The translations under genes and the position numbers were made by a program. From Escherichia coli (GTDB lineage Bacteria; Pseudomonadota; Gammaproteobacteria; Enterobacterales; Enterobacteriaceae), in the NCBI RefSeq assembly GCF_003018235.1, contig NZ_CP027437.1: DNA of 64,000 nucleotides; one strand, 5' to 3'. Below, piece after piece: positions 3,869 to 40,018 of this stretch; position 1 is the stretch's first letter; each line of letters begins with the position of its first letter. A model generated the notes under the pieces. The model was not told where the DNA came from. It saw nothing but the letters and a program-made list of their open reading frames with translations, and did not search any database.

Positions 3869-5551
3869 ATGAAGTCTGCATTAAAGAAAAGTGTCGTAAG
3901 TACCTCGATATCTTTGATACTGGCATCTGGTATGGCTGCATTTGCTGCTCATGCGGCAGATGATGTAAAGCTGAAAGCAACCAAAACAAACGTTGCTTTC
4001 TCAGACTTTACGCCGACTGAATACAGTACCAAGGGAAAGCCAAATATTATCGTACTGACTATGGATGATCTTGGTTATGGACAACTTCCTTTTGATAAGG
4101 GATCTTTTGACCCAAAAACAATGGAAAATCGTGAAGTTGTCGATACCTACAAAATAGGGATAGATAAAGCCATTGAAGCTGCGCAAAAATCAACGCCGAC
4201 GCTCCTTTCATTAATGGATGAAGGCGTACGTTTTACTAACGGCTATGTGGCGCACGGTGTTTCCGGCCCCTCCCGCGCCGCAATAATGACCGGTCGAGCG
4301 CCCGCCCGCTTTGGTGTCTATTCCAATACCGATGCTCAGGATGGTATTCCGCTAACAGAAACTTTCTTGCCTGAATTATTCCAGAATCATGGTTATTACA
4401 CTGCAGCAGTAGGTAAATGGCACTTGTCAAAAATCAGTAATGTGCCGGTACCGGAAGATAAACAAACGCGTGACTATCATGACAACTTCACCACATTTTC
4501 TGCGGAAGAATGGCAACCTCAAAACCGTGGCTTTGATTACTTTATGGGATTCCACGCTGCAGGAACGGCATATTACAACTCCCCTTCACTGTTCAAAAAC
4601 CGTGAACGCGTCCCCGCAAAAGGTTATATCAGCGATCAGTTAACCGATGAGGCAATTGGCGTTGTTGATCGTGCCAAAACACTTGACCAGCCTTTTATGC
4701 TTTACCTGGCTTATAATGCTCCGCACCTGCCAAATGATAATCCTGCACCGGAGCAATATCAGAAGCAATTTAATACTGGTAGTCAAACAGCAGATAACTA
4801 CTACGCTTCCGTTTATTCTGTTGATCAGGGTGTAAAACGCATTCTCGAACAACTGAAGAAGAACGGACAGTATGACAATACTATTATTCTCTTTACCTCC
4901 GATAATGGTGCGGTTATCGATGGTCCTCTGCCGCTGAACGGGGCGCAAAAAGGCTATAAGAGTCAGACCTATCCTGGCGGTACTCACACCCCAATGTTTA
5001 TGTGGTGGAAAGGAAAACTTCAACCCGGTAATTATGACAAGCTGATTTCCGCAATGGATTTCTACCCGACAGCTCTTGATGCAGCCGATATCAGCATTCC
5101 AAAAGACCTTAAGCTGGATGGCGTTTCCTTGCTGCCCTGGTTGCAAGATAAGAAACAAGGTGAGCCACATAAAAATCTGACCTGGATAACCTCTTATTCT
5201 CACTGGTTTGATGAGGAAAATATTCCCTTCTGGGATAATTACCACAAATTTGTCCGCCATCAGTCAGACGATTACCCGCATAACCCCAACACCGAGGATT
5301 TAAGCCAATTCTCTTATACGGTGAGAAATAACGATTATTCGCTAGTCTATACAGTAGAAAACAATCAGTTAGGTCTCTACAAACTGACGGATCTACAGCA
5401 AAAAGATAACCTTGCCTCCGCGAATCCGCAGGTCGTTAAAGAGATGCAAGGCGTGGTAAGAGAGTTTATCGACAACAGCCAGCCACCGCTTAGCGAGGTA
5501 AATCAGGAGAAGTTTAACAATATCAAGAAAGCACTAAGCGAAGCGAAATAA
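3869..5551 (+). CDS. ydeN: Putative serine-type sulfatase YdeN with signal peptide
   Basis: Start at ATG 3869 (MKSALKK..., AGAGGAA RBS) within ORF 3836..5551; sulfatase active-site signature with Ser in place of Cys (GVSGPSRAAIMTGR). Confidence 0.9.
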   Translation: MKSALKKSVVSTSISLILASGMAAFAAHAADDVKLKATKTNVAFSDFTPTEYSTKGKPNIIVLTMDDLGYGQLPFDKGSFDPKTMENREVVDTYKIGIDKAIEAAQKSTPTLLSLMDEGVRFTNGYVAHGVSGPSRAAIMTGRAPARFGVYSNTDAQDGIPLTETFLPELFQNHGYYTAAVGKWHLSKISNVPVPEDKQTRDYHDNFTTFSAEEWQPQNRGFDYFMGFHAAGTAYYNSPSLFKNRERVPAKGYISDQLTDEAIGVVDRAKTLDQPFMLYLAYNAPHLPNDNPAPEQYQKQFNTGSQTADNYYASVYSVDQGVKRILEQLKKNGQYDNTIILFTSDNGAVIDGPLPLNGAQKGYKSQTYPGGTHTPMFMWWKGKLQPGNYDKLISAMDFYPTALDAADISIPKDLKLDGVSLLPWLQDKKQGEPHKNLTWITSYSHWFDEENIPFWDNYHKFVRHQSDDYPHNPNTEDLSQFSYTVRNNDYSLVYTVENNQLGLYKLTDLQQKDNLASANPQVVKEMQGVVREFIDNSQPPLSEVNQEKFNNIKKALSEAK

Positions 5552-5563
5552 CTAAACCTTCAT

Positions 5564-8773: not shown

Positions 8774-11146
8774 ATGAAGCGAGTTCTTATTCCTGGCGTC
8801 ATTTTATGTGGCGCTGATGTGGCGCAGGCCGTCGATGACAAAAATATGTACATGCATGTTTTTGAAGAGATGACGGTCTATGCTCCTGTCCCTGTACCCG
8901 TAAACGGCAACACGCATTACACCAGTGAAAGCATCGAGCGTTTACCGACCGGGAATGGCAATATCAGCGATCTGCTGAGAACCAACCCTGCGGTACGCAT
9001 GGATTCAACGCAAAGTACCTCATTGAACCAGGGAGATATTCGCCCTGAGAAAATCTCTATTCACGGTGCGTCGCCCTACCAGAATGCCTATTTGATTGAT
9101 GGTATTAGTGCAACTAATAACCTGAACCCAGCGAATGAGTCCGATGCCAGTAGTGCAACCAATATTAGCGGGATGTCACAGGGGTATTATCTAGATGTCA
9201 GCTTACTTGACAATGTGACGCTTTATGACAGTTTTGTGCCGGTTGAATTTGGTCGCTTCAATGGCGGGGTAATTGATGCAAAGATCAAACGCTTCAATGC
9301 TGATGATAGCAGCGTGAAACTGGGTTATCGCACTACGCGTTCGGACTGGTTAACATCGCATATCGATGAGAATAACAAGAGCGCATTTAATCAAGGTTCT
9401 TCAGGAAGTACTTATTACTCTCCAGATTTTAAAAAGAACTTTTATACCTTGTCGTTTAATCAGGAACTGGCTGATAACTTCGGCGTTACCGCCGGTTTAT
9501 CGCGCCGCCAGTCTGATATCACCCGCGCGGATTATGTTTCGAATGACGGCATTGTCGCCGGTCGGGCACAGTATAAAAACGTTATCGATACCGCAGTGAG
9601 CAAATTTACCTGGTTTGCCAGCGACCGCTTTACCCACGATTTAACATTAAAATATACCGGCTCCAGTCGTGATTATAATACCAGCACCTTCCCGCAGTCT
9701 GATCGTGAAATGGGTAATAAATCCTACGGTCTGGCATGGGATATGGATACGCAGCTCGCAAGGGCCAAACTACGTACCACCGTTGGTTGGGATCATATTA
9801 GTGATTATACCCGTCACGATCATGACATCTGGTACACCGAACTTTCATGTACATATGGTGATATTACAGGGCGTTGCACCCGTGGCGGATTAGGACACAT
9901 TTCCCAGGCTGTAGATAATTACACCTTCAAAACACGCCTGGACTGGCAAAAATTCACCGTGGGTAATGTTTCGCATCAACCCTACTTCGGCGCGGAATAC
10001 ATCTATTCCGATGCATGGACTGAACGCCATAACCAGTCTGAATCCTATGTGATTAATGCTGCCGGAAAGAAAACTAACCATACCATTTACCATAAAGGTA
10101 AAGGCAGCCTGGGAATTGACAACTATACGCTGTATATGGCGGATCGCATTAGCTGGCGTAATGTGTCATTAATGCCCGGCGTGCGGTATGACTATGACAA
10201 CTATCTGTCAAACCACAATATCTCCCCGCGCTTTATGACGGAATGGGATATTTTTGCTGATCAAACCTCAATGATTACCGCCGGTTATAACCGTTACTAT
10301 GGCGGGAATATTCTTGATATGGGATTACGTGATATCCGCAATAGCTGGACGGAATCGGTATCAGGCAATAAAACCCTGACGCGTTATCAGGATTTGAAAA
10401 CACCTTATAACGATGAACTGGCAATGGGGTTGCAGCAGAAAATCGGTAAGAACGTTATTGCGCGTGCAAACTATGTTTATCGTGAAGCGCATGATCAAAT
10501 CAGTAAAAGCAGTCGTACCGACAGCGCGACTAAAACCACCATTACTGAATATAACAACGACGGCAAAACCAAAACGCATTCGTTCAACCTCAGTTTTGAA
10601 CTGGCCGAACCCCTGCATATCAGCCAGGTAGATATTAACCCGCAAATTGTCTTTAGCTATATCAAGAGCAAGGGCAACTTGTCGTTAAACAATGGTTATG
10701 AGGAAAGCAATACCGGCGATAACCAGGTGGTTTATAACGGTAATCTGGTCTCTTACGATAGCGTTCCAGTGGCAGATTTTAATAACCCATTAAAGATCTC
10801 CTTAAACATGGATTTCACGCATCAACCGAGCGGGTTGGTGTGGGCGAATACGCTGGCCTGGCAAGAAGCGCGTAAAGCTCGCATTATCCTGGGTAAGACG
10901 AATGCGCAATACATCAGCGAATATTCAGATTACAAGCAGTATGTTGACGAAAAACTGGATAGCAGCCTGACCTGGGACACCCGCTTGTCCTGGACGCCAC
11001 AATTTCTGAAACAACAAAACCTGACGATCAGTGCCGATATTCTCAATGTACTGGATAGCAAAACCGCGGTTGATACAACGAATACCGGTGTGGCGACCTA
11101 CGCCAGTGGCCGTACTTTCTGGCTTGATGTCAGCATGAAATTTTAA
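8774..11146 (+). CDS. yddB: TonB-dependent outer-membrane transporter YddB
   Basis: 790-aa ORF, C-terminal aromatic residue (..VSMKF), beta-barrel-like composition; recognised as YddB. Confidence 0.9.
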   Translation: MKRVLIPGVILCGADVAQAVDDKNMYMHVFEEMTVYAPVPVPVNGNTHYTSESIERLPTGNGNISDLLRTNPAVRMDSTQSTSLNQGDIRPEKISIHGASPYQNAYLIDGISATNNLNPANESDASSATNISGMSQGYYLDVSLLDNVTLYDSFVPVEFGRFNGGVIDAKIKRFNADDSSVKLGYRTTRSDWLTSHIDENNKSAFNQGSSGSTYYSPDFKKNFYTLSFNQELADNFGVTAGLSRRQSDITRADYVSNDGIVAGRAQYKNVIDTAVSKFTWFASDRFTHDLTLKYTGSSRDYNTSTFPQSDREMGNKSYGLAWDMDTQLARAKLRTTVGWDHISDYTRHDHDIWYTELSCTYGDITGRCTRGGLGHISQAVDNYTFKTRLDWQKFTVGNVSHQPYFGAEYIYSDAWTERHNQSESYVINAAGKKTNHTIYHKGKGSLGIDNYTLYMADRISWRNVSLMPGVRYDYDNYLSNHNISPRFMTEWDIFADQTSMITAGYNRYYGGNILDMGLRDIRNSWTESVSGNKTLTRYQDLKTPYNDELAMGLQQKIGKNVIARANYVYREAHDQISKSSRTDSATKTTITEYNNDGKTKTHSFNLSFELAEPLHISQVDINPQIVFSYIKSKGNLSLNNGYEESNTGDNQVVYNGNLVSYDSVPVADFNNPLKISLNMDFTHQPSGLVWANTLAWQEARKARIILGKTNAQYISEYSDYKQYVDEKLDSSLTWDTRLSWTPQFLKQQNLTISADILNVLDSKTAVDTTNTGVATYASGRTFWLDVSMKF

Positions 11147-11190
11147 TAGTTCGGATTTTACTTAACCGGGTAAATTTGCCCGGTTTTCGC

Positions 11191-13986: not shown

Positions 13987-14248
13987 TAACAGCCCCGTCA
14001 ACACATCGTTGGCGGGGATTTTATCAATATTCGCTATTTTTATGTAATAATTTTATAAATGCGTTCAAAATAATAACCAAGTACTAATAGTGATATTTTA
14101 AGGTCTGATTTTTACGTGATAATTCAGGAGGCGTAGAAAGTGCATAAAAATAACAGCATAAAACACCTTGCCACCACCCAAGAATTCAATAATGTATTGA
14201 TTTTCAATGATAAAATATTATTCGCATAATATCTCACGATAAATAACA

Positions 14249-14268
14249 TTAGGATTTTGTTATTTAAA
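14249..14268 (+). promoter_or_regulatory. GAD box (GadE/GadX-binding 20-mer TTAGGATTTTGTTATTTAAA) upstream of gadB
   Basis: Exact 20-nt gad-box sequence present about 80-100 bp upstream of the gadB start. Confidence 0.7.
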
Positions 14269-14347
14269 CACGAGTCCTTTGCACTTGCTTACTTTATCGA
14301 TAAATCCTACTTTTTTAATGCGATCCAATCATTTTAAGGAGTTTAAA

Positions 14348-15748
14348 ATGGATAAGAAGCAAGTAACGGATTTAAGGTCGGAACTACTCGATTCACGTTT
14401 TGGTGCGAAGTCTATTTCCACTATCGCAGAATCAAAACGATTTCCGCTGCACGAAATGCGCGATGATGTCGCATTCCAGATTATCAATGACGAATTATAT
14501 CTTGATGGCAACGCTCGTCAGAACCTGGCCACTTTCTGCCAGACCTGGGACGACGAAAATGTCCACAAGTTGATGGATTTATCCATTAACAAAAACTGGA
14601 TCGACAAAGAAGAATATCCGCAATCCGCAGCCATCGACCTGCGTTGCGTAAACATGGTTGCCGATCTGTGGCATGCGCCTGCGCCGAAAAATGGTCAGGC
14701 CGTTGGCACCAACACCATTGGTTCTTCCGAGGCCTGTATGCTCGGCGGGATGGCGATGAAATGGCGTTGGCGCAAGCGTATGGAAGCTGCAGGCAAACCA
14801 ACGGATAAACCAAACCTGGTGTGCGGTCCGGTGCAAATCTGCTGGCATAAATTCGCCCGCTACTGGGATGTGGAGCTGCGTGAGATCCCTATGCGCCCCG
14901 GTCAGTTGTTTATGGACCCGAAACGCATGATTGAAGCCTGCGACGAAAACACCATCGGCGTGGTGCCGACTTTCGGCGTGACCTACACCGGTAACTATGA
15001 GTTCCCGCAACCGCTGCACGATGCGCTGGATAAATTCCAGGCCGACACCGGTATCGACATCGACATGCACATCGACGCCGCCAGCGGTGGCTTCCTGGCA
15101 CCGTTCGTCGCCCCGGATATCGTCTGGGACTTCCGCCTGCCGCGTGTGAAATCGATCAGTGCTTCAGGCCATAAATTCGGTCTGGCTCCGCTGGGCTGCG
15201 GCTGGGTTATCTGGCGTGATGAAGAAGCGCTGCCGCAGGAACTGGTGTTCAACGTTGACTATCTCGGTGGTCAGATTGGGACTTTCGCCATCAACTTCTC
15301 CCGCCCGGCGGGTCAGGTGATTGCACAGTACTATGAATTCCTGCGCCTCGGTCGTGAAGGCTATACCAAAGTACAGAACGCCTCTTACCAGGTTGCCGCT
15401 TATCTGGCGGATGAAATCGCCAAACTGGGGCCGTATGAGTTCATCTGTACCGGTCGCCCGGACGAAGGCATCCCGGCGGTTTGCTTCAAACTGAAAGATG
15501 GTGAAGATCCGGGATACACCCTGTACGACCTCTCTGAACGTCTGCGTCTGCGCGGCTGGCAGGTTCCGGCCTTCACTCTCGGCGGTGAAGCCACCGACAT
15601 CGTGGTGATGCGCATTATGTGTCGTCGCGGCTTCGAAATGGACTTTGCTGAACTGTTGCTGGAAGACTACAAAGCCTCCCTGAAATATCTCAGCGATCAC
15701 CCGAAACTGCAGGGTATTGCCCAGCAGAACAGCTTTAAACATACCTGA
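14348..15748 (+). CDS. gadB: Glutamate decarboxylase beta (PLP-dependent)
   Basis: 466-aa product from ATG 14348 ([19 protein letters not shown]...); PLP-lysine motif [10 protein letters not shown]. Confidence 0.95.
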
Positions 15749-18939: not shown

Positions 18940-19264
18940 CCCTCTTGAAATATCCCACTAGTAATCATGCTTACTTAAGTCAAATTAACTACGCAATTAA
19001 CCACACTTAGTTAAACAGTCATAAATCCCCTAATAAAAATGTATGAATATGAAAAAACATACGATATTCGCTGTCACCGAAAAATAATTACGATGGGCTA
19101 TACTCTTCTGAAGAACAGTAGCGTAGATTGAAACTGTCCTAAGTCGCTTATTTGTTTTCAGTATATCTTCATATTTCAGGAGAATATGGTGCAGTTAGTC
19201 GATCTCGCACGTTGCGTTTCGTTTTGATTCCGTCTGCTTTCCCAGCCTTATAAGGGTGTGAATT

Positions 19265-20647
19265 ATGGAGATGTATTTTAAAAGAATGAAAGATGAGTGG
19301 ACCGGGCTTGTCGAACAAGCAGATCCGCTCATTCGTGCTAAAGCCGCGGAAATTGCCGTTGCGCATGCCCATTATCTGAGTATTGAGTTTTACCGAATTG
19401 TCCGTATCGACCCGCATGCCGAAGAATTCTTGAGTAATGAACAAGTTGAGCGGCAGTTGAAAAGTGCGATGGAACGCTGGATTATTAACGTGCTTTCTGC
19501 CCAGGTTGACGATGTCGAAAGGCTAATACAAATCCAGCATACCGTTGCGGAAGTGCATGCCCGCATAGGAATTCCGGTAGAAATTGTCGAGATGGGGTTT
19601 CGGGTGCTGAAAAAAATCCTCTATCCAGTCATCTTCTCTTCGGATTATTCCGCCGCAGAAAAACTTCAGGTCTACCATTTCTCTATTAACAGTATTGATA
19701 TCGCTATGGAAGTGATGACCCGCGCGTTTACCTTTAGTGACAGTAGTGCCTCAAAGGAAGATGAAAACTATCGTATCTTCTCGTTACTGGAAAATGCCGA
19801 AGAAGAAAAAGAACGGCAAATAGCCTCATTACTTCCATGGGAAATAGATATTATCTATAAAGTCCTGCTGGATTCTGATTTAGGCAGTAGTTTGCCTTTA
19901 AGCCAGGCTGATTTTGGCCTGTGGTTTAACCATAAAGGGCGACATTATTTTAGCGGCATAGCCGAAGTGGGCCATATCTCCCGTCTGATTCAGGATTTTG
20001 ACGGTATTTTCAATCAAACCATGCGTAACACCAGGAATTTGAATAACAGAAGTTTACGGGTGAAATTTTTATTACAGATAAGAAATACCGTATCGCAAAT
20101 TATTACCTTGTTGCGTGAATTGTTTGAAGAAGTATCGCGCCACGAAGTCGGTATGGATGTACTGACGAAATTACTTAACCGCCGTTTCCTGCCGACGATC
20201 TTCAAACGCGAAATTGCCCATGCCAACCGGACCGGCACACCGCTGTCAGTGCTGATTATTGACGTTGATAAATTCAAAGAGATCAACGATACGTGGGGCC
20301 ATAACACTGGCGATGAAATTCTGCGTAAAGTCTCTCAGGCCTTTTATGACAACGTCCGCAGTAGTGATTATGTTTTCCGCTACGGTGGCGATGAATTTAT
20401 CATTGTTTTGACTGAAGCTTCTGAAAACGAAACGTTACGTACCGCAGAACGTATTCGCAGTCGGGTGGAGAAAACCAAACTGAAAGCCGCAAACGGCGAA
20501 GATATTGCCCTCTCACTTTCCATCAGTGCTGCCATGTTTAATGGTCATCCTGACTATGAGCGCCTCATTCAAATAGCCGATGAAGCTCTGTATATCGCCA
20601 AAAGACGAGGTAGAAACCGTGTTGAACTCTGGAAAGCCAGTCTTTAG
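19265..20647 (+). CDS. dosC: Globin-coupled diguanylate cyclase DosC
   Basis: 460-aa ORF; GGDEF motif (RYGGDEFIIV) in the C-terminal domain. Confidence 0.92.
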   Translation: MEMYFKRMKDEWTGLVEQADPLIRAKAAEIAVAHAHYLSIEFYRIVRIDPHAEEFLSNEQVERQLKSAMERWIINVLSAQVDDVERLIQIQHTVAEVHARIGIPVEIVEMGFRVLKKILYPVIFSSDYSAAEKLQVYHFSINSIDIAMEVMTRAFTFSDSSASKEDENYRIFSLLENAEEEKERQIASLLPWEIDIIYKVLLDSDLGSSLPLSQADFGLWFNHKGRHYFSGIAEVGHISRLIQDFDGIFNQTMRNTRNLNNRSLRVKFLLQIRNTVSQIITLLRELFEEVSRHEVGMDVLTKLLNRRFLPTIFKREIAHANRTGTPLSVLIIDVDKFKEINDTWGHNTGDEILRKVSQAFYDNVRSSDYVFRYGGDEFIIVLTEASENETLRTAERIRSRVEKTKLKAANGEDIALSLSISAAMFNGHPDYERLIQIADEALYIAKRRGRNRVELWKASL

Positions 20648-20733
20648 ATGCGCCAGGATGCAGAGGTAATCATGAAGCTAACCGATGCGGATAATGCCGC
20701 CGATGGCATTTTTTCCCCGCCCTTGAGCAAAAT

Positions 20734-23070
20734 ATGATGGGCGCGGTGTTAATTAACGAAAATGATGAAGTGATGTTTTTCAACCCCGCCGCAGAGAAGC
20801 TCTGGGGGTACAAACGTGAAGAAGTTATTGGCAATAACATTGATATGCTGATTCCGCGGGATTTGCGTCCCGCGCATCCTGAATACATCCGTCACAACCG
20901 TGAAGGCGGTAAAGCGCGCGTCGAGGGGATGAGTCGGGAGCTGCAGCTGGAGAAAAAAGACGGCAGTAAAATCTGGACCCGTTTTGCGCTATCGAAAGTG
21001 AGCGCCGAGGGTAAAATTTATTACCTGGCGCTGGTACGGGATGCCAGCGTAGAAATGGCGCAAAAAGAACAGACCCGACAATTGATTATTGCCGTTGACC
21101 ATCTCGACCGACCGGTGATTGTCCTCGATCCGGAACGCCATATTGTGCAGTGCAATCGCGCATTTACCGAAATGTTTGGTTACTGCATTAGCGAAGCCAG
21201 CGGTATGCAGCCCGATTCACTCCTTAACATTCCAGAATTCCCTGCTGATAACCGCATTCGTTTACAACAGTTGCTATGGAAAACCGCCCGCGATCAGGAC
21301 GAATTTCTGCTGTTGACGCGCACCGGTGAAAAAATCTGGATTAAAGCCTCTATCAGCCCGGTCTATGATGTGCTCGCGCATCTGCAGAACCTGGTAATGA
21401 CTTTCTCGGATATCACCGAAGAACGGCAAATCCGCCAGCTTGAAGGCAATATTCTCGCCGCCATGTGCAGCAGCCCGCCATTTCATGAAATGGGGGAAAT
21501 TATTTGTCGTAACATCGAATCTGTACTCAACGAATCGCATGTTTCGCTGTTCGCGCTGCGCAACGGGATGCCGATACACTGGGCGTCATCTTCGCACGGT
21601 GCAGAAGTTCAAAATGCGCAAAGCTGGTCAGCGACCATTCGTCAGCGTGATGGTGCGCCTGCGGGGATCCTGCAAATTAAAACCTCGTCAGGAGCAGAAA
21701 CCAGCGCCTTTATCGAACGCGTGGCAGATATCAGCCAGCATATGGCCGCGCTGGCGCTGGAACAGGAAAAAAGCCGTCAGCATATTGAACAACTCATCCA
21801 ATTTGATCCGATGACCGGTCTGCCAAATCGCAATAACCTGCACAATTACCTCGATGACCTGGTCGACAAAGCCGTCTCTCCGGTGGTCTATCTCATCGGT
21901 GTTGACCATATTCAGGATGTGATTGATAGCCTTGGCTATGCGTGGGCCGATCAGGCATTGCTGGAAGTAGTCAATCGCTTTCGTGAAAAACTCAAACCGG
22001 ATCAGTATCTCTGTCGTATCGAAGGTACGCAGTTTGTCCTCGTGAGCCTGGAAAACGACGTCAGTAACATAACCCAAATCGCCGATGAGCTACGGAATGT
22101 GGTCAGCAAGCCGATAATGATTGACGATAAACCATTCCCGCTCACCTTGAGCATTGGCATCAGCTACGACGTGGGTAAAAACCGCGATTACCTGCTCTCC
22201 ACTGCTCACAATGCAATGGATTATATTCGCAAGAATGGCGGTAACGGCTGGCAGTTCTTCAGCCCGGCGATGAACGAAATGGTAAAAGAGCGTTTGGTTT
22301 TAGGCGCGGCGCTGAAAGAAGCAATTAGCAATAACCAACTGAAACTGGTTTACCAGCCGCAAATCTTCGCAGAAACGGGTGAACTGTACGGCATCGAAGC
22401 CCTTGCTCGCTGGCACGATCCCCTGCATGGTCATGTGCCCCCTTCACGGTTTATTCCTCTCGCAGAAGAGATCGGTGAAATCGAAAACATTGGGCGCTGG
22501 GTCATCGCGGAAGCTTGTCGTCAGTTAGCAGAATGGCGTAGCCAGAATATTCATATCCCGGCGCTTTCCGTTAACTTGTCGGCGCTGCACTTTCGCAGTA
22601 ATCAACTGCCTAATCAGGTGTCTGATGCAATGCACGCCTGGGGTATTGACGGCCACCAGCTGACGGTGGAAATCACGGAAAGCATGATGATGGAACACGA
22701 TACCGAAATCTTTAAGCGCATTCAGATCCTGCGCGATATGGGCGTGGGTTTATCGGTAGATGATTTTGGCACGGGCTTTTCCGGATTATCCCGCTTAGTC
22801 AGTCTTCCGGTAACGGAAATCAAAATTGACAAAAGTTTTGTCGATCGTTGTCTGACCGAAAAACGCATCCTTGCCTTACTTGAAGCCATTACCAGCATTG
22901 GGCAAAGCCTTAATTTAACCGTCGTGGCGGAAGGCGTCGAAACCAAAGAGCAATTTGAGATGCTACGCAAGATCCACTGTCGCGTTATTCAGGGATATTT
23001 CTTTTCCCGCCCCCTGCCCGCCGAAGAAATTCCAGGCTGGATGAGCAGTGTGTTACCGCTGAAAATCTGA
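20734..23070 (+). CDS. dosP: Heme-regulated c-di-GMP phosphodiesterase DosP (PAS-PAS-GGDEF-EAL); 5' end frameshifted relative to the expected start at 20672
   Basis: EAL motif (YGIEALARWHDP); long ORF begins at ATGATG 20734; a 21-codon ORF with GAGG RBS (20672..20737) ends in TGA overlapping it; adding one T to the T6 run at 20709..20714 would fuse the two. Confidence 0.85.
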   Translation: MMGAVLINENDEVMFFNPAAEKLWGYKREEVIGNNIDMLIPRDLRPAHPEYIRHNREGGKARVEGMSRELQLEKKDGSKIWTRFALSKVSAEGKIYYLALVRDASVEMAQKEQTRQLIIAVDHLDRPVIVLDPERHIVQCNRAFTEMFGYCISEASGMQPDSLLNIPEFPADNRIRLQQLLWKTARDQDEFLLLTRTGEKIWIKASISPVYDVLAHLQNLVMTFSDITEERQIRQLEGNILAAMCSSPPFHEMGEIICRNIESVLNESHVSLFALRNGMPIHWASSSHGAEVQNAQSWSATIRQRDGAPAGILQIKTSSGAETSAFIERVADISQHMAALALEQEKSRQHIEQLIQFDPMTGLPNRNNLHNYLDDLVDKAVSPVVYLIGVDHIQDVIDSLGYAWADQALLEVVNRFREKLKPDQYLCRIEGTQFVLVSLENDVSNITQIADELRNVVSKPIMIDDKPFPLTLSIGISYDVGKNRDYLLSTAHNAMDYIRKNGGNGWQFFSPAMNEMVKERLVLGAALKEAISNNQLKLVYQPQIFAETGELYGIEALARWHDPLHGHVPPSRFIPLAEEIGEIENIGRWVIAEACRQLAEWRSQNIHIPALSVNLSALHFRSNQLPNQVSDAMHAWGIDGHQLTVEITESMMMEHDTEIFKRIQILRDMGVGLSVDDFGTGFSGLSRLVSLPVTEIKIDKSFVDRCLTEKRILALLEAITSIGQSLNLTVVAEGVETKEQFEMLRKIHCRVIQGYFFSRPLPAEEIPGWMSSVLPLKI

Positions 23071-23267
23071 CAAATTCCTCTCGCCCGCACTCGCGGGTTT
23101 TCCTTTAACGTGACACCGTCACTTAAATACTGTGATTTCAGCTACGATTCCGGGAGATTCCTTCTTTAACTTCCCCTCTTGCACCAAAACTGCACTACGC
23201 TGCACGAATGTTGATCAAAAGTTAAAAAATATAACTTTAAGCCAGCATTCTGGCGCTTATCCCGGCA

Positions 23268-33721: not shown

Positions 33722-34006
33722 ATGAAAATGGCCAATCATCCCCGCCCGGGGGACATTATTCAGGAATCACTGGACGAACTTAATGTCAGCCTGCGCGAGT
33801 TTGCCAGAGCAATGGAAATTGCGCCCTCAACGGCAAGCCGATTGCTGACCGGAAAAGCAGCTTTGACACCAGAAATGGCGATTAAACTTTCCGTGGTGAT
33901 CGGCAGTTCGCCGCAAATGTGGCTGAATCTGCAAAACGCCTGGAGTCTGGCAGAGGCAGAAAAAACGGTGGATGTGTCGCGATTACGCCGTCTGGTTACG
34001 CAATAA
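33722..34006 (+). CDS. yddM: HigA/VapI-family HTH protein YddM (putative solitary antitoxin, 94 aa)
   Basis: HTH segment ([22 protein letters not shown]); start chosen at ATG 33722 (MKMANHP...); the upstream in-frame extension from 33644 looks non-coding. Confidence 0.8.
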
Positions 34007-34036
34007 AAAAATGGCGCTTCTTAAAGCGCCATTTTC
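34004..34036. terminator. Bidirectional rho-independent terminator between convergent yddM and fdnI
   Basis: aaaaaaatggcgctt-ctta-aagcgccatttt hairpin flanked by A/T runs on both sides. Confidence 0.65.
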
Positions 34037-34056
34037 AGCTTAAAGTTCAAAAGAGA

Positions 34057-34710
34057 TTATATCCCTTCTTCACTCTCTTTTTTCGCTTCTGCCTTCTCGA
34101 TTTCACGATACCAGCGCGGATGGTGTTTCTTCGCCCAGCGACGGCTCACCTTTCCTTCGATCATCCCTTTAATCGATCCTTTCACCCAGAATGCCATATA
34201 CATATGGATCAGGATGGCGTGGATCAGGATGATACCCGCAGCCGCGTGGATCAGCAGGCTATAACGGACAACCTGTATCGGGAAGTACTGCGCAAAGTAC
34301 GGACGCCAGATAATCACCCCGGTCACCAGCAGCACGAAAATCATGCTCATGATCGACCAGAACATCATCTTTTGCCCGGCGTTGTACTTACCAACATCCG
34401 CCACTTTGTGCTCATTGCCTTTTAATACTTCGACAATGTTCAACAGCCACGGAATATCTTTCTTATCCGGGATGTTGTGATGCACAAAACGCACAAACAT
34501 AAACATCAGCGCGACGAAAATCGCAATGCCGAAGAACGGGTGCAAAATGCGCCCCATCTGCGGCGTACCGAAGGTTTGCGTCAGCCATTGCAGCGTCGGG
34601 AAGAAGAACGAAATCCCGGACAGCGCCACCAGGAAGAAGCAAATCACCACGGTCCAGTGACAGGCGCGATCAATAAATTTGGTGCGCACAATCATTTTCG
34701 ACTTACTCAT
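34057..34710 (-). CDS. fdnI: Formate dehydrogenase-N gamma subunit (cytochrome b556)
   Basis: 217-aa product from the internal start ([15 protein letters not shown]...); 4 TM helices; 8-nt overlap with fdnH. Confidence 0.92.
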
Positions 34711-35587
34711 GATGATCCTCCTCGTCATCGTCCACTTCCTTATTCGGGCCAATACCGATGTAGTGGAAAATCAACCCGGCAAAAGTGGCAATAAAGCCAG
34801 CCGCTGCCAGCGGTTTCAACGCGCCTTTCCACAGGCTTACCGAGGTGTCGATCTTCGGATCTTTCGGCAGACCGTGATACAGCTCCGGCTGATCGGCATG
34901 ATGCAGCACGTACATGACATGCGTACCACCGACCCCTTCCGGGTTGTAGACGCCAGCATGTTCGTAACCACGCGCTTTCAGTTTCGCCACGCGCTGTTCC
35001 GCCAGCTCCAGCATCTCCTTCTTGGTACCGAAGTGGATAGCCCCGGTCGGACAGGTTTTCACACAAGCCGGTTCCTGGCCGACGCTGACGCGATCGACGC
35101 AGAGCGTGCATTTATATACCCGGTTATCCTCTTTGTTGAGGCGCGGAATATTAAACGGACACCCGGCAATGCAGTAACCACAGCCGATGCAGTTTTCCGA
35201 CTGGAAATCGACAATCCCGTTAGCGTACTGAATGATTGCACCAGCAGACGGGCACGCCTTCAGGCAGCCCGGATCTTCACAGTGCATACAGCCGTCTTTA
35301 CGGATCAGCCACTCCAGCTTGCCGTTCTGTTCGGTTTCGCTAAAGCGCATCACCGTCCAGGACTTGGCGCTCAGATCGGCGGGGTTATCGTAAACCCCGA
35401 CGCAGTGCCCCACTTCATCACGGATGTCGTTCCACTCCGAACACGCCACCTGACAGGCTTTACAACCGATACAGGTGGAAACGTCGATAAGTTTCGCGAC
35501 TTCTGCTTTGTAATCACGCACCTGAGAAGGCGGCGTGATGGAGTTAGTTGCGGACCTTTTGATAATGTCCTGCGTTTCCATAGCCAT
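34703..35587 (-). CDS. fdnH: Formate dehydrogenase-N iron-sulfur (beta) subunit
   Basis: 294-aa ORF with four ferredoxin-type Cys clusters (e.g. [11 protein letters not shown]). Confidence 0.95.
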
Positions 35588-35599
35588 CTGTTCGCCCCC

Positions 35600-38500
35600 T
35601 TACGCCTTCTCAATGTTGACTAAGAACGCTTTATATTCCGGCGTTTGCGAGTTTGCATCACCGACATTCGGCGTCAGAGTGTTAGCGATATAACCTTTAC
35701 GCGCGACACCCTCAAAGCCCCAGTGGATTGGAATACCCACCGTTTCAACCTGCTGACCGTTTACATTCAGCGGCTTCAGACGGCGCGTTACCACAGCCAC
35801 CGCGCGGATAAAGCCACGCTTGCTGGATACGGTGACACGGTCGCCATTGGCGATGCCTTTCGCCGCCGCCAGCGTTTCGCTGATTTCCACAAACTGTTCC
35901 GGCTGAGCAATGGCGTTGAGCAATGCATGCTTAGTCCAGGTGTGGAAGTGCTCGGTCAGACGATAGGTCGTACCCACATACGGGAACTGCTCTTTTTTAC
36001 CCATCCGCAGCGCGTCTTGTTCATACAGACGAACGACCGGGTTAGACACCACGTTCGGATGCAGCGGGTTAGTGCCCAGCGGCGTTTCAATTGGCTCGTA
36101 GTGTTCCGGGAACGGACCTTCCGCCATTTTGTTGATGGCAAACAGGCGTCCCATCCCTTCCGGCTGCATGATAAACGGTCCGGTTGGCGTACCTGGCGCG
36201 GCATTGCCGAAGTCCGGAATATCGTTACCCGTCCACTTGCTGCCGTTCCACTGGATCAGCATCCGTTTCGGATCCCACGGTTTACCGTTGATATCCGCCG
36301 AAGCACGGTTGTACAGCACGCGACGGTTGAGCGGCCACGCCCAGGCCCATCCCAGCGTATTCCCCAGACCGGATGGGTCGGAGTTATCGCGGTTAGCCAT
36401 CTGGTTGCCCTGCTCTGTCCAGCTACCGGTGTAGATCCAGCAAGACGATGCGGTTGTACCGTCATCACGCAGATGCGCAAAGCTACTCAGCAACTGACCT
36501 TTCTTCGCAATCAGCACGCCATTGGCATCATAGAGATCTTCCAGCGCGTAGCCGTTGTTCTCTTTAGCTACTTCGTCAGATTGCGGTTCGTGCGGCTGCT
36601 TGTAGTTCCAGCTCATCTTCATCAGCGGTTCTACGCCTTTACCACCTTCGGCCTGGTACAACTCGCGCAGATGATGGTAGATACCCGCCAGAATTTCGCC
36701 GTCGTTACGCGCTTCGCCCGGCGCGTCCTGACCTTTCCAGTGCCACTGCAACCAGCGACCGGAGTTAGCGATAGAACCATCTTCTTCAGCAAAGCAGGTC
36801 GAAGGCAGACGGAATACTTCAGTCTGAATAGACGCCGGATCGACATCGTTCGACTCGCCGTGGTTCTGCCAGAAGGTTGAGGTTTCAGTCACCAGCGGAT
36901 CGATAACCACCATGTACTTCAGTTTGCTCAGGCAGCTCACCACTTTGTTTTTGTCCGGGAAGGACGCAACCGGGTTAAAGCCCTGGCAGAAATAACCGGT
37001 GACTTTGCCTTCGTCCATCATGTTGAAATACTTGATGACGTCGTAGGTCTGGTCCCACTTCGGCAGCCAGTCGTAGCCCCAGTTGTTCTCTTTTTGCGCG
37101 GCATCGCCGTAGAAAGATTTCATAAGGCTAACGAAGAACTTCGGATAGTTGCTCCAGTAGTTCACCTGATCAGCCAGCGTCGCTTTCGGCGTGTTCGCTT
37201 CCAGATACGACTGCAAATCAACCTGTTTTTCTGACGGCAGCGTCAGATAACCCGGCAGGCTGGTAGAGAGCAGGCCTAAGTCGGTCAGACCCTGAATGTT
37301 GGAGTGACCACGCAATGCGTTCACGCCGCCACCGGCCATACCCATGTTACCGAGCAGTAACTGGATCATCGCCATAGTGCGGATGTTCTGCGCACCCACG
37401 GTGTGCTGCGTCCAGCCCAGCGCGTACAGGAAGGTGGTGGTGCGATCCGGCGCGCTGGTGGAGGCCAGCACTTCACACACTTTCAGGAAGTCGGCTTTTG
37501 GCGTACCGCAGATGTTTTCTACTACATCCGGCGTGTAGCGGGAAACGTGCTCTTTCAGCAGGTTCCACACACAGCGCGGATGAGTCAGTGTTTCATCGCG
37601 TTTCGCATAGCCGTTTTCATCGAACTGATAGTTCCAGGACGATTTATCGTACTGGCGTTTTTCAGCGTCGTAGCCGCTGAACAGACCGTCTTCGAAAGCA
37701 AAATCATCACGCACCAGCAGGCTGGCATTGGTGTAATGCTTAACGTATTCGGCATTGATTTTGTTGTTTTCGATCAGGTAGCGCAAAACGCCAGACAGGA
37801 ACGTAATGTCCGTACCGGAACGAATAGGTGCGTAAATATCCGCTACAGAAGCGGTACGCGTAAAACGGGGATCGACAACGATCAAGGTTGCATCGTTGTT
37901 GTTTTTCGCTTCCATCGCCCAGCGGAAACCGACGGGATGCGCTTCAGCAGCGTTACCGCCCATCACCATCACGACGTTAGCGTTTTTGATATCCACCCAG
38001 TGGTTGGTCATCGCACCGCGACCAAATGTTGGAGCAAGACTTGCTACCGTTGGTCCGTGTCAGACGCGCGCCTGGTTGTCTACCGCCAGCATCCCGAGGG
38101 AGCGGGCAAATTTCTGGGTCAGCATCCCGGTTTCGTTGCTGGCACCGGAGGCACACAGCATACCGGTAGAAAGCCAACGGTTTACCGTTACGCCCTGCTC
38201 GTTCTTTTCAATAAAGTTAGCGTCACGGTCAGCTTTCATCAGCTTCGCTATACGGGAGAATGCTTCTTCCCAGCTAATGCGCTGCCATTTGTCAGAACCT
38301 GGCGCACGATATTCCGGGTAGCGCAGACGGTTTTCGCTGTTGACGTAATCCAGCAAACCGGCCCCTTTCGGGCACAGCGCACCACGGCTTACCGGATGAT
38401 CCGGGTCACCTTCAATGTGATAAATCGCTTCTCTGGCGTTTTTCGCGCCATCACCCAGGCTATACATCAATAGCCCGCAACCTACGGAACAGTATGTGCA

Positions 38501-38647
38501 GGTGTTACGGATCTCTTTAGCGCGTAATAATTTGTAGTTTCGCGCCTGAGCCAGTGCTTGCTTCGGGGCAAAGCCCAATGCCGCTACTGTTGTTCCAGCC
38601 ATACCGCCCGCGCAGATTTTAAAAAATTGTCTGCGACTGACGTCCAT
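35600..38647 (-). CDS. fdnG: Formate dehydrogenase-N alpha subunit, selenocysteine-containing (in-frame TGA at 38060..38062)
   Basis: ORFs 38060..38647 and 35600..38011 are one frame interrupted only by TGA, giving 1015 codons with Sec at codon 196; Tat signal RRQFFK. Confidence 0.93.
38020..38059 (-). promoter_or_regulatory. Putative SECIS stem-loop immediately 3' of the fdnG UGA codon
   Basis: mRNA segment ...GGUAGCAAGUCUUGCUCC... can fold into a hairpin with a GUCUU-type apical loop, similar in shape to the fdhF SECIS. Confidence 0.5.
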
Positions 38648-38711
38648 TGCTTTCCTCTTTTTTCAGGGGTATTACTGCGCGAGGAAACTAACAGTAAAAT
38701 TCTGAATCTTT

Positions 38712-38725
38712 TTGCGCGAAATCAA
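38712..38725 (-). promoter_or_regulatory. Candidate FNR site (TTGAT-N4-CGCAA on the fdnG sense strand) in the fdnG promoter
   Basis: Half-site match to TTGAT-N4-ATCAA about 70 bp upstream of the fdnG ATG. Confidence 0.35.
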
Positions 38726-38772
38726 AAAGAACACGTGTTTGCCACAAAATAATCCGCCTGCGCAAATTGACC

Positions 38773-38788
38773 TACCTCAATAGCGGTA
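38773..38788 (-). promoter_or_regulatory. Candidate NarL 7-2-7 heptamer pair (TACCGCT-at-TGAGGTA on the fdnG sense strand)
   Basis: Inverted heptamers resembling TACYYMT-N2-AKRRGTA, about 60 bp upstream of the FNR-like site. Confidence 0.35.
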
Positions 38789-38878
38789 GAAAAACGCACC
38801 ACTGCCTGACAGGCCAGTTAAAAAAATGCTATAAAATTCAGCTTAATTTTTAACGGCAAGAGAGACAAAACAGCGAGC

Positions 38879-39760
38879 ATGACACGACAAAAAGCAACGC
38901 TCATAGGGCTAATAGCGATCGTCCTGTGGAGCACGATGGTAGGATTGATTCGCGGTGTCAGCGAGGGGCTAGGCCCGGTCGGCGGCGCAGCTGCTATCTA
39001 TTCATTAAGCGGGCTGCTGTTAATCTTCACAGTTGGATTTCCGCGTATTCGGCAAATCCCGAAAGGCTATTTACTCGCCGGGAGTCTGTTATTCGTCAGC
39101 TATGAAATCTGTCTGGCGCTTTCCTTAGGGTATGCGGCGACCCGTCATCAGGCGATTGAAGTGGGTATGGTGAACTATCTGTGGCCCAGCCTGACAATTC
39201 TCTTTGCCATTCTGTTTAATGGTCAGAAAACCAACTGGCTGATTGTACCAGGATTATTATTAGCCCTCGTCGGCGTCTGCTGGGTGTTAGGCGGTGACAA
39301 TGGGTTACATTATGATGAAATCATCAATAATATCACCACCAGCCCATTGAGTTATTTCCTGGCGTTCATTGGTGCGTTTATCTGGGCAGCCTACTGCACA
39401 GTAACGAATAAATACGCACGCGGATTTAATGGAATTACCGTTTTTGTCCTGCTAACGGGAGCAAGTCTGTGGGTTTACTATTTTCTCACGCCACAACCAG
39501 AAATGGCATTTAGCACGCCAGTCATGATTAAACTCATCTCTGCGGCATTTACCTTAGGATTTGCTTATGCTGCATGGAACGTCGGTATATTACATGGCAA
39601 CGTCACCATTATGGCGGTAGGTTCGTATTTTACGCCCGTTCTTTCCTCAGCGCTTGCAGCCGTGCTGCTCAGCGCCCCGCTGTCGTTCTCGTTCTGGCAA
39701 GGCGCGCTAATGGTCTGCGGCGGTTCCCTGCTCTGCTGGCTGGCGACACGTCGTGGCTAA
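38879..39760 (+). CDS. yddG: Aromatic amino acid exporter YddG (DMT/EamA family)
   Basis: 293-aa polytopic membrane protein recognised as YddG. Confidence 0.92.
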   Translation: MTRQKATLIGLIAIVLWSTMVGLIRGVSEGLGPVGGAAAIYSLSGLLLIFTVGFPRIRQIPKGYLLAGSLLFVSYEICLALSLGYAATRHQAIEVGMVNYLWPSLTILFAILFNGQKTNWLIVPGLLLALVGVCWVLGGDNGLHYDEIINNITTSPLSYFLAFIGAFIWAAYCTVTNKYARGFNGITVFVLLTGASLWVYYFLTPQPEMAFSTPVMIKLISAAFTLGFAYAAWNVGILHGNVTIMAVGSYFTPVLSSALAAVLLSAPLSFSFWQGALMVCGGSLLCWLATRRG

Positions 39761-40018
39761 AATAATTGTCGGGTCTACGGCCCGGCAGTTAATCAGATAA
39801 ATTCCGACAATATAAAAAAATAAATTTCAAATACCAGTAGTTCACCTTATATTTCATTTCGACTTCGATCACATATCGATAAATAATATTATTTCATCTA
39901 TTTTTCTCATTGTTTTTAATCACCATTCTATTTTAAAAACAGTATGTCATTTATAAATGACGCCGTTTAAAATTCGTTTAGAAAATACGTTTAACGATAA
40001 TTAAAAGGATTCTGTTAA

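Follow-up and report, generated by a model that had tools for sequence, protein, structure and literature searches.

Among the closest described counterparts of the locus analysed here is dosP (pdeO) of E. coli K-12 (b1489; UniProt P76129). Structural work on this protein uses a construct with eight extra N-terminal residues, MRQDAEVI, relative to P76129 (PMC11543664). In the resulting 807-aa numbering, M30 is a dimer-interface residue that touches the F-G loop region of the partner monomer, and its side-chain contact across the dimer is required for the ON state; the M30A substitution lowers O2 affinity and leaves an activity that is weak and unstimulated by air or CO (PMC11543664). In older work covered by a review, DosP lacking haem or the whole haem-PAS domain is reportedly still catalytic towards cAMP (PMC4263535). 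An altered balance between DosC and DosP changes curli and PGA expression in K-12, according to work cited in PMC5635171. Natural inactivation of dosP is already documented: UTI isolate B-11870 has a dosC/dosP-type lesion caused by a stop codon, DosC is frequently absent (PMC5635171), and dosP of O157:H7 Sakai is listed as a 'predicted pseudogene' (PMC7430833).

We analysed a 64,000-nucleotide stretch of an E. coli chromosome (contig NZ_CP027437.1), hereafter the window; the dosC and dosP features mapped below lie on its + strand. The gene order digH-yddY-dosC-dosP-ddpX in the window is the same in K-12 and in the RefSeq-annotated three nearest complete genomes, making the locus orthologous and syntenic to that of K-12. 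The upstream member of the dosCP operon, dosC (19265..20647), is intact and encodes the 460-aa diguanylate cyclase DosC, as judged from the ORF list and RefSeq synteny, and Pfam Protoglobin and GGDEF matches for DosC were found on the contigs of the clone described below. An in-frame ATG (20648..20650), recognised on translation, abuts the dosC stop codon (TAG/ATG) and is the start used by the historical 807-aa 'EcDOS' numbering (MRQDAEVI...) of the structural literature; its Shine-Dalgarno pairing is weak (-3.3 kcal/mol). The annotated dosP start, ATG 20672, is preceded by GAGG at 20663..20666, 5 nt upstream, and its best anti-Shine-Dalgarno duplex (-7.1 kcal/mol) is the strongest among the six starts tested. 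The initial annotation had described an ORF with a good ribosome-binding site at this position that ends after 21 codons, and we find the same. This remnant 5' ORF of dosP (20672..20737), which begins at the ATG equivalent to the start of RefSeq and K-12 dosP, reads MKLTDADNAADGIFSPPLSKI and stops at TGA 20735-20737. Its codons 1-14 are native (MKLTDADNAADGIF), and they are followed by seven out-of-frame codons, SPPLSKI, and the TGA.

The frame is broken at a homopolymer (20709..20714) that is exactly T6, is followed directly by C4, and is the site of a 1-bp deletion by comparison with T7 genomes. Addition of one T to this run, as had been proposed, restores a continuous 799-aa DosP starting MKLTDADNAADGIFFPALEQNMMGAV. 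The identification of this sequence as the N-terminus of K-12 DosP also proved right: MG1655 b1489 has T7 in the aligned 5' region, where the window has T6, and its N-terminus is identical. The T-repaired protein has the same PAS/PAS/GGDEF/EAL organisation as the K-12 protein and has one residue that differs when compared with DosP from either of the two nearest complete genomes. In the window itself, an uninterrupted 799-codon frame from the annotated start is absent, the frame shifting after codon 14. Thus, whereas K-12 has T7, the window has T6 and a stop after 21 codons, leaving a 778-aa frame from M22 (M30). The possibility that reference DosP proteins might start at the downstream MMGAV is contradicted by RefSeq, K-12 and UniProt P76129 entries, all of which start MKLTD. 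Measured against intact close orthologues, dosP of the window carries a frame-breaking indel whose length is not a multiple of three, which is what PGAP treats as a pseudogene.

The remaining dosP frame (20734..23070; 778 aa) is otherwise intact. It begins, as first described, at the ATGATG (20734..20739) that the TGA overlaps; the overlap extends to both candidate restart codons, 20734-20736 and 20737-20739, which are M22 and M23 of the 799-aa protein and M30 and M31 in 807-aa numbering. The frame, taken from the ORF list, keeps the haem-PAS core, PAS-PAC, degenerate GGDEF and EAL domains; Pfam PAS, GGDEF and EAL matches are recorded on an identical 778-aa product, and PDB searches match DosP at E-values of 1e-100. 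An intact remainder of 778 codons is expected for a very recent lesion, yet it is also compatible with a product that is still useful.

We next consider how the tract is distributed in the species. An exact 41-mer containing T7 is present in at least 4,957 of the 5,316 dosP-bearing complete E. coli records (blastn with 11-base words). By contrast, T6 occurs in two of 5,426 complete genomes, VR50 (NZ_CP011134.1) and 2EC1 (NZ_CP047571.1), in a screen whose sensitivity control recovered 5,306 of the 5,426. K-12, the three nearest complete genomes and six other DigH-matched contigs all have T7, and the window shows a single 1-bp gap, at 20709, against every one of them. This distribution marks T7 as the ancestral and population state and T6 as the derived one. 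The dosP genes of VR50 and 2EC1, annotated as 'frameshifted' by PGAP, are like that of the window in having T6 at the same tract and the same remnant ORF and restart geometry. They differ in being single records from backgrounds unrelated to the window (97.5-97.7% identity over 6 kb, with distinct flanking SNPs), so that they would represent independent events or possibly sequencing errors, whereas the window allele is backed by eight concordant assemblies of one clone. A second homopolymer frameshift in dosP, A6 to A5, is likewise found in two of the 5,426 genomes (O145 RM12522-C8 and strain J6). Many frameshift-derived DosP fragments are present in the databases, and a word-indexed homologue search, which returned mostly E. 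coli fragments, gave large clusters of truncated DosP. Literature searches found no published description of this exact T6 allele.

The initial annotation had weighed a homopolymer sequencing or assembly error, in which case the strain would truly have T7 and an intact dosP, against a real strain variant. Under-calling of homopolymers typically leaves just such a T7 to T6 change, the window has further contractions, of A8 to A7, relative to its relatives at 34005 and 39814 (both intergenic), its chromosome lies outside the RefSeq complete-genome set, and the singleton T6 records of VR50 and 2EC1 could be errors themselves. However, we found T6 in seven other independently assembled isolates that are 99.98% identical to the window, three of them Logan SRA assemblies and four NCBI drafts. 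The Logan assemblies SRR8171167, SRR13421124 and SRR22548703 align to the window over 8,337 bp without gaps and with two SNPs each, and the drafts GCA_025433985.1, GCA_024600115.1 and GCA_016625795.1 differ by two to three SNPs in 13.3 kb. The fourth draft, GCA_011972655.1, has one SNP relative to the window outside the gad paralogue (14.0-15.0 kb); it had been considered as an independent, more divergent T6 carrier, a candidacy that was rejected because its extra differences all lie in that paralogue. Private SNPs at 12148, 15894, 18219, 19424, 20525 and 23835 resolve the clone into at least five genotypes, with a diversity of about six SNPs in 13 kb. The assemblies derive from separate SRA runs and NCBI drafts, and their distinct private SNPs show that no single dataset has been used repeatedly; since members with at least five SNP genotypes all carry T6, the clone is diversifying with the deletion fixed in it. 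Moreover, the window is gap-free against the clone assemblies over 8.3-13.3 kb, and against two relatives over 48 kb the dosP T gap is the sole coding indel. At the level of genome sequence, the eight concordant, independent assemblies with their distinct private SNPs show that T6 is a genuine, clonal, derived allele, inherited across the SNP-diversified clone as a real strain variant would be; an error is very hard to credit. A protein identical to the 778-aa product is recorded on 13-14 contigs, and in every one of the eight clone members the 778-codon frame is unbroken. The NCBI drafts of the clone are annotated with no dosP protein. Within the clone, dosP has no SNPs against about one expected from the clone's few SNPs, numbers too small to inform on selection.

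We favour, with a probability of roughly 0.8, a history in which one T7 to T6 deletion in the ancestor of the clone was inherited by all sampled members, with DosP predicted to be lost or strongly reduced and DosC kept. The deletion would have fallen in dosP codons 13-15 and had a single origin, in the ancestor of an E. coli clone that is now diversifying. Ribosomes would load at the strong native site, ATG 20672, and possibly at ATG 20648 as well, would run out of frame past Phe14 and would terminate at TGA 20735 after 21 codons, so that the full-length 799-aa DosP is not expected to be made. The sole route to a DosP-like protein would then be inefficient termination-reinitiation at AUG 20734/20737, yielding a 778-aa product from M22 (M30) in which the haem-PAS core and EAL domain would be kept and the N-cap helix would be gone. 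The predicted outcome is that O2-stimulated c-di-GMP phosphodiesterase activity is lost or strongly lowered while cells go on making the partner cyclase DosC. Most likely, T6 disables dosP, and we infer a fall in DosP protein level and activity and a DosC/DosP balance moved towards c-di-GMP synthesis. Given that natural dosP inactivation is already documented (PMC5635171, PMC7430833), the allele is best regarded as a probable ordinary, recent, lineage-specific pseudogene or hypomorph. Inactivation by a lesion of this kind is a commonplace route of gene loss in bacteria.

The yield of any shortened protein would depend on the junction at 20734..20739. A stop codon that overlaps a start codon lets a terminating ribosome re-initiate without a strong Shine-Dalgarno sequence, as in the lacI and T4 rIIB restarts and the overlaps of the trp operon. 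An ATGA/TGATG overlap of stop and start is classically associated with translational coupling, and coupling without a Shine-Dalgarno sequence is possible, usually at low yield. Like these restarts and coupled pairs, the window has a stop-start overlap, the ATGATG containing TGA 20735-20737; unlike them, its overlap is an accident of frameshift and not an evolved junction. Upstream of the restart codon there is just GAG, 6 nt away, and the pairing available to 20734/20737 is only -1.9 kcal/mol, compared with -7.1 kcal/mol at 20672. With almost no Shine-Dalgarno sequence at the restart codons, any 778-aa product would require termination-reinitiation, and because the overlap has the classic coupling geometry, reinitiation could exceed what the weak pairing suggests. 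A consensus scan found no promoter-like site for the 778-aa frame near the junction, with counts below shuffle expectation, and an Rfam search for structured RNA at the junction returned the fdnG SECIS alone in the whole window. On these features, production of a shortened DosP by reinitiation at 20734/20737 is weakly plausible.

The putative 778-aa product would be without the N-cap helix F14-Q20 (FFPALEQ) at the haem-PAS dimer interface. Among 32 diverse relatives of 25-64% identity, drawn from an exhaustive representative search, L18 is conserved in 31 and E19 and Q20 in 27 each. An AlphaFold2 model built with a 33-sequence alignment places the helix at residues 14-20 and the first strand at 24-28, and the PAS core from this strand, A-beta, is wholly kept in the 778-aa frame of the model. 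Single-sequence AlphaFold2 gives a pLDDT below 50 for residues 1-20, and the models of solved DosP structures start at residues 16-20 (807-aa numbering).

These features bear on whether the clone makes a useful DosP of residues 22-799 by reinitiation at ATGA/TGATG, in which case the allele would be a functional variant with altered O2 regulation and not a pseudogene. The stop/start overlap is exact, its two AUGs follow one another directly in an A-rich setting that is moderately unpaired, and a strong Shine-Dalgarno sequence drives translation into it; the 778 codons are intact in eight clone members, and the PAS core is fully kept. Because haem-PAS-deleted DosP is reportedly active on cAMP (PMC4263535), the truncated protein might be deregulated and active instead of inactive. 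Nevertheless, we consider a useful shortened DosP unlikely. The restart pairing is very weak, the conserved LEQ of the N-cap helix is among the residues lost, and the new N-terminus would be M30 itself, whose cross-dimer contact the ON state needs (PMC11543664); moreover, an intact ORF is uninformative at about six SNPs in 13 kb, and the allele is rare, with no sign of spread past one clone and two singletons. In a further reading, T6 would be a natural N-cap deletion from which efficient reinitiation gives an O2-blind DosP (locked off or deregulated) that starts at M30 and still assembles with DosC, with the clone attenuating DosC against cyclase excess. DosC of this isolate does carry a private substitution, G421S (the SNP at 20525), which replaces the invariant glycine of S-x-G in the GGDEF domain, and E54K is present in the DosC globin domain of a sister sub-lineage of the clone. 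We think this combination improbable; if true, it would be a small natural experiment in rewiring the O2-to-c-di-GMP rheostat.

Loss of DosP would also be avoided if the frameshift were suppressed, either by tRNA-Phe slipping by -1 in the P site over the U6 run or by RNA polymerase slippage adding a U, giving wild-type 799-aa protein (GIFFPALEQ) in a useful fraction. The remnant ORF is followed by a frame offset from it by -1, tRNA-Phe could re-pair from UUU to the overlapping UUU, after which UUC-CCC-GCC is native sequence, and a modest GC stem (CGCCC...GGGCG) lies a few bases past the run in the predicted fold. The zero frame, however, reads AUU-UUU-UCC and offers no X-XXY-YYZ heptamer for tandem slippage on a run of only six bases, and we found no strong stimulatory Shine-Dalgarno sequence or pseudoknot. 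Runs of six U or A generally show very low transcriptional slippage, efficient cases needing about eight to nine or more. The in-frame T7 of nearly all genomes also argues against a conserved recoding site, and suppression at a useful level seems highly improbable. The restored frame would contain the tryptic peptide GIFFPALEQNMMGAVLINENDEVMFFNPAAEK. Finally, the T tract could be a contingency locus at which phase variation switches dosP between on and off states, as might be suggested by T7 to T6 having arisen independently three times, in the clone, VR50 and 2EC1, whose backgrounds differ, and by the recurrence of the A6 to A5 frameshift. Yet all eight sampled clone members have T6, with neither reversion nor variation in tract length, just two of 5,426 other genomes differ, and a 7-base tract is short for a contingency locus. 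T6 is as frequent as the contraction of an ordinary A6 tract in dosP (2 of 5,426 each), as expected from background mutation of a dispensable gene, and we give a switch almost no credence.

A frameshifted dosP that is most likely disabled, the reading we prefer, resembles the other natural dosC/dosP lesions as a lineage-specific inactivation of a dispensable c-di-GMP turnover gene. It differs from them in position and mechanism: the lesion in the window is unusually near the 5' end, and the stop/start overlap leaves a nearly full-length frame. With the engineered M30A protein (Nat Commun 2024, PMC11543664) it shares the haem-PAS dimer-interface element that would be perturbed, and the putative restart product begins exactly at M30. 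M30A, however, is a point substitution in a full-length protein with measured activity, whereas the putative T6 product would keep M30, lose the preceding helix and be made, if at all, by reinitiation. The accidental choice of M30 as restart codon is the sole distinctive feature of the allele, and would make it a handy natural variant with which to probe what the haem-PAS N-cap does. Otherwise, T6 is one more example of the plasticity of the E. coli c-di-GMP network and raises no new question. The clone probably retains the cyclase DosC but has no O2-stimulated phosphodiesterase DosP, and the allele can be used as a marker of the clone. In annotation, the locus should be named a frameshifted dosP pseudogene, and 'polishing' of the tract to T7 should be avoided.

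Just past the dosP stop codon, a consensus scan marks a terminator-like, GC-rich hairpin with a T-rich tail (23083..23098), a pattern match only. The dosCP operon probably ends here, which would leave no downstream operon gene for polarity of the frameshift to affect.

The window covers E. coli chromosomal DNA from ydeP to narZ and beyond, and dosC (19265-20647) lies directly upstream of the dosP region on the plus strand. On the same strand, the remnant dosP ORF begins at ATG 20672, 5 bases 3' of a Shine-Dalgarno GAGG (20663-20666), reads MKLTDADNAADGIFSPPLSKI before it terminates at TGA 20735-20737, a codon enclosed by the ATGATG (20734-20739) that opens a 778-codon frame. Between the two starts lies a T6 homopolymer at 20709-20714, followed by C4. 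Re-inspection found each coordinate accurate that the initial annotation had assigned to the ribosome-binding site, the ORF, the TGA/ATGATG overlap and the T6 run. It had also proposed that one inserted T restores a continuous ORF, and indeed the repaired frame encodes a 799-aa protein with one residue changed relative to DosP in either of the two nearest complete genomes. The K-12 N-terminus had been given correctly as well: MG1655 b1489 carries T7 and starts MKLTDADNAADGIFFPALEQNMMGAV. Absent from that annotation is an in-frame ATG at 20648 that adjoins the dosC stop. The historical 807-aa 'EcDOS' numbering was counted from its equivalent, and UniProt P76129 and RefSeq are on the 799-aa start (PMC11543664 Methods). 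The Shine-Dalgarno of start 20672 is far better, at -7.1 kcal/mol compared to -3.3 kcal/mol for 20648. Just 5' of dosC, the 13-codon small ORF yddY (19187-19228, plus strand; K-12 b4746) is conserved in the window, with a GGAG-type Shine-Dalgarno sequence.

A homopolymer sequencing or assembly error and a real strain variant had both been considered as sources of the short T run. When the window was aligned with its two nearest complete genomes over approximately 48 kb (98.9% identity), the one-base gap in dosP was the window's only coding-region indel; the remaining coding indels, in yddB and ydeN, are lesions carried by the relatives themselves. Records of the exact 778-aa product exist for 13-14 contigs. 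Three Logan assemblies from separate SRA runs (SRR8171167, SRR13421124 and SRR22548703; L006-L008) carry T6 and differ from the window by 2 SNPs and 0 gaps in 8,337 bp. Four NCBI drafts also carry T6: GCA_025433985.1, GCA_024600115.1 and GCA_016625795.1 (L010, L015 and L017), each with 2-3 SNPs in 13.3 kb relative to the window, and GCA_011972655.1 (L019), with 1 SNP once a gad paralogue is set aside. Private SNPs at 12148, 15894, 18219, 19424, 20525 and 23835 define at least five genotypes, so the assemblies represent separate isolates of a single clone rather than re-use of one dataset. We regard these concordant independent assemblies as the decisive line of evidence: since T6 occurs in seven other assemblies of the clone with distinct private SNPs, we reject sequencing or assembly error in favor of a genuine variant. 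Given that T6 is common to these assemblies and that the nearest T7 sequences among those fetched are approximately 1% divergent, the sequence comparisons indicate that the T7 to T6 deletion is real, derived and older than the diversification of the clone.

Several other differences were recorded in these comparisons. The RefSeq complete-genome collection lacks the chromosome of the window, and its closest member reaches only 99.1% identity over 24 kb. In isolate AF39 (L002), yddB is frameshifted (8776-11147), and in strain MEW (L003) ydeN is frameshifted (3871-5552) and an IS1 is inserted in yddG (38880-40538); all three genes are intact in the window. Intergenic one-base contractions occur in the window at 34005 (A8 to A7) relative to both nearest complete genomes, and at 39814 (A8 to A7) and 38818 (T3 to T2) relative to L002 only; the clone's other assemblies end before 34005-39814, and contractions there were compared with complete genomes alone. 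In L019 and another draft contig, L016, positions 1-2680 encode a trehalase and a CCP/MauG-type heme protein, which take the place of pqqL before the gad gene adjoining gadC. Their extra differences from the window all fall inside that gad gene (equivalent of window 14000-15000), and the region looks like an assembly join driven by the gadA/gadB paralogues or a gene conversion.

With a 261-base query, dosP was located in 5,319 of the 5,426 complete genomes of E. coli searched, none of which matched the window's own 261 bases exactly; the top matches all span one more base. To screen for T6, we used a 40-base query designed so that any 28-mer seed had to include the T run. Only two of the 5,426 genomes, VR50 and 2EC1, were positive. 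The screen is sensitive, since an equivalent query built on a wild-type A6 tract of dosP retrieved 5,306 of the 5,426. A T7 41-mer was exact in 4,957 of 5,316 records, and sampled rows of the remaining 359 were mostly same-length SNP variants of it. The T6 backgrounds of VR50 and 2EC1 are 97.5-97.7% identical to the window and differ in flanking SNPs, so their T6 tracts either arose independently or are errors confined to these two records. PGAP labels dosP in both as a 'frameshifted' pseudogene, and the identical lesion is already annotated as such in public records. The clone's NCBI drafts lack a DosP protein call. Our literature search found no published description of the T6 allele.

Lineage-specific loss of dosC or dosP has already been described. 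UTI isolate B-11870 has a stop codon in dosP, and DosC is often absent (PMC5635171, which cites Povolotsky & Hengge 2016); in O157:H7 Sakai, dosP is a 'predicted pseudogene' (PMC7430833). Protein databases hold large clusters of DosP fragments of 238 aa (442 members), 160 aa (354), 109 aa (190) and 86 aa (121), several of which end in out-of-frame tails. Like the clone's T6, the loss of one A from an A6 tract (A6 to A5; window 20953-20958 or its equivalent) is a homopolymer frameshift in dosP, and its frequency among complete genomes is the same (2/5,426). This allele reads ...LEKKTAVKSG and is carried by O145 RM12522-C8 and J6 (NZ_CP035767.1 and NZ_CP195973.1) and by the 190-member fragment cluster. 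Together, these sequences suggest that dosP has been repeatedly inactivated in E. coli, and the equal frequencies argue that homopolymer tracts in this dispensable gene mutate at an ordinary background rate. A recoding site is disfavored by this match to the background rate, as is a contingency switch, which is further disfavored by the lack of tract-length variation within the clone (T6 in 8/8 members). A 158-aa DosP fragment of a divergent Escherichia-like lineage (P0049, an ENA contig; 82% identical) is likewise called from MMGAV, which might reflect another upstream lesion or the choice of the gene caller.

Translation from either ATG 20648 or ATG 20672 halts at TGA 20735, so that standard decoding cannot yield full-length DosP. 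Independent initiation at 20734/20737 appears unlikely because Shine-Dalgarno-like pairing there amounts to only -1.9 kcal/mol; a consensus scan found no promoter-like site near this junction. Some restart at these codons is nevertheless plausible. The ATGA/TGATG stop-start overlap is a classical geometry for translational coupling, translation upstream is strong, and the restart codons have A-rich surroundings with a predicted unpaired fraction of about one half. Reinitiation that lacks a Shine-Dalgarno sequence is usually inefficient, however. Expression of the 778-aa frame as a shortened DosP by termination-reinitiation is a minority possibility. Wild-type DosP could arise by slippage of the ribosome or of RNA polymerase, since the long frame lies at -1 with respect to the remnant ORF: if tRNA-Phe slipped in the P site on the U run, or the transcript gained one extra U, exactly GIFFPALEQ would be rebuilt. 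Yet the zero frame, AUU-UUU-UCC, provides no tandem-slippage heptamer, six bases is a short tract for transcriptional slippage, and no stimulator is evident; this route would contribute a trace at most.

The predicted restart product would begin at M22 of the 799-aa protein, the residue that structural papers, in their 807-aa numbering, call M30. Many heme-PAS-type relatives were retrieved by a sensitive search, with homology starting between query residues 9 and 17. Across 32 aligned relatives (25-64% identity), residues 1-12 are unconserved, and L18 (31/32), E19 (27/32) and Q20 (27/32) are conserved within a motif, (T/A)LEQAxDAVVxID, of which the DosP version is PALEQNMMGAVLIN; a 77%-identical Escherichia homologue shows the same pattern. 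In an AlphaFold2 model built with this alignment (mean pLDDT 81.8), residues 1-10 are disordered, 14-20 form a helix and 24-28 the first PAS strand. The PDB sequences agree with this picture: in the 807-aa numbering, 1S66 covers 16-134 and cryo-EM chains 9CMF and 9CLO begin at residue 20. According to a 2024 cryo-EM study, in the oxy (ON) state M30 of one monomer touches residues 93-95 and 114-116 of the other, and an M30A substitution lowers O2 affinity and leaves a weak phosphodiesterase that is unstimulated by air or CO (PMC11543664). Given the conserved LEQ segment, the modeled helix, and the position of M30 and the M30A defect, a DosP that starts at M30 without the N-cap helix is expected to have a damaged heme-PAS dimer interface and defective regulation. 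The restart product may instead have deregulated activity, since in older deletion work removal of heme or of the entire heme-PAS domain left activity towards cAMP intact (summarized in PMC4263535).

We commit to the reading that the T6 allele would abolish or strongly reduce DosP function and leave DosC unopposed; in a well-studied gene, it represents a pseudogene or hypomorph of an ordinary kind, recent in origin and passed on clonally. The upstream dosC is intact. Because dosP comes last in its operon and is followed by a terminator-like hairpin (23083-23098, plus strand; a pattern match in the consensus scan), no polarity on other genes is expected.

The window's DosC allele (WP_106905984.1) is unique. 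Its G421S substitution (window 20525) is private to the window isolate, with G in the seven other clone members, and in PleD and other GGDEF structures the position aligned with G421 is the invariant Gly of the S-x-G strand. In a sister sub-lineage (L007/L017), DosC has a globin-domain substitution, E54K (window 19424 equivalent). dosC holds 2 of the 6 clone SNPs in 13.3 kb (approximately 0.11 by chance), and these substitutions might attenuate a now unopposed cyclase. There is a small chance that the accidental restart codon at exactly M30, together with the private G421S, amounts to a natural rewiring of the DosC/DosP pair. Compared with L006-L008, L010, L015 and L017, the clone's five coding SNPs (12148, 18219, 19424, 20525 and 23835) are all non-synonymous or nonsense, namely pqqL R316C, digH T217R, dosC E54K, dosC G421S and ddpX Q170* (the last carried by L008/L015), which is typical of a clone that diversified very recently; the sixth (15894) is located just 5' of gadC. 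Elsewhere in the window, fdnG (35600-38647, minus strand) is split into two ORFs by an in-frame selenocysteine TGA at codon 196 (38060-38062). The sole Rfam match in the window, SECIS_3, lies at 38007-38065 on the same strand, and the split is normal rather than a defect.
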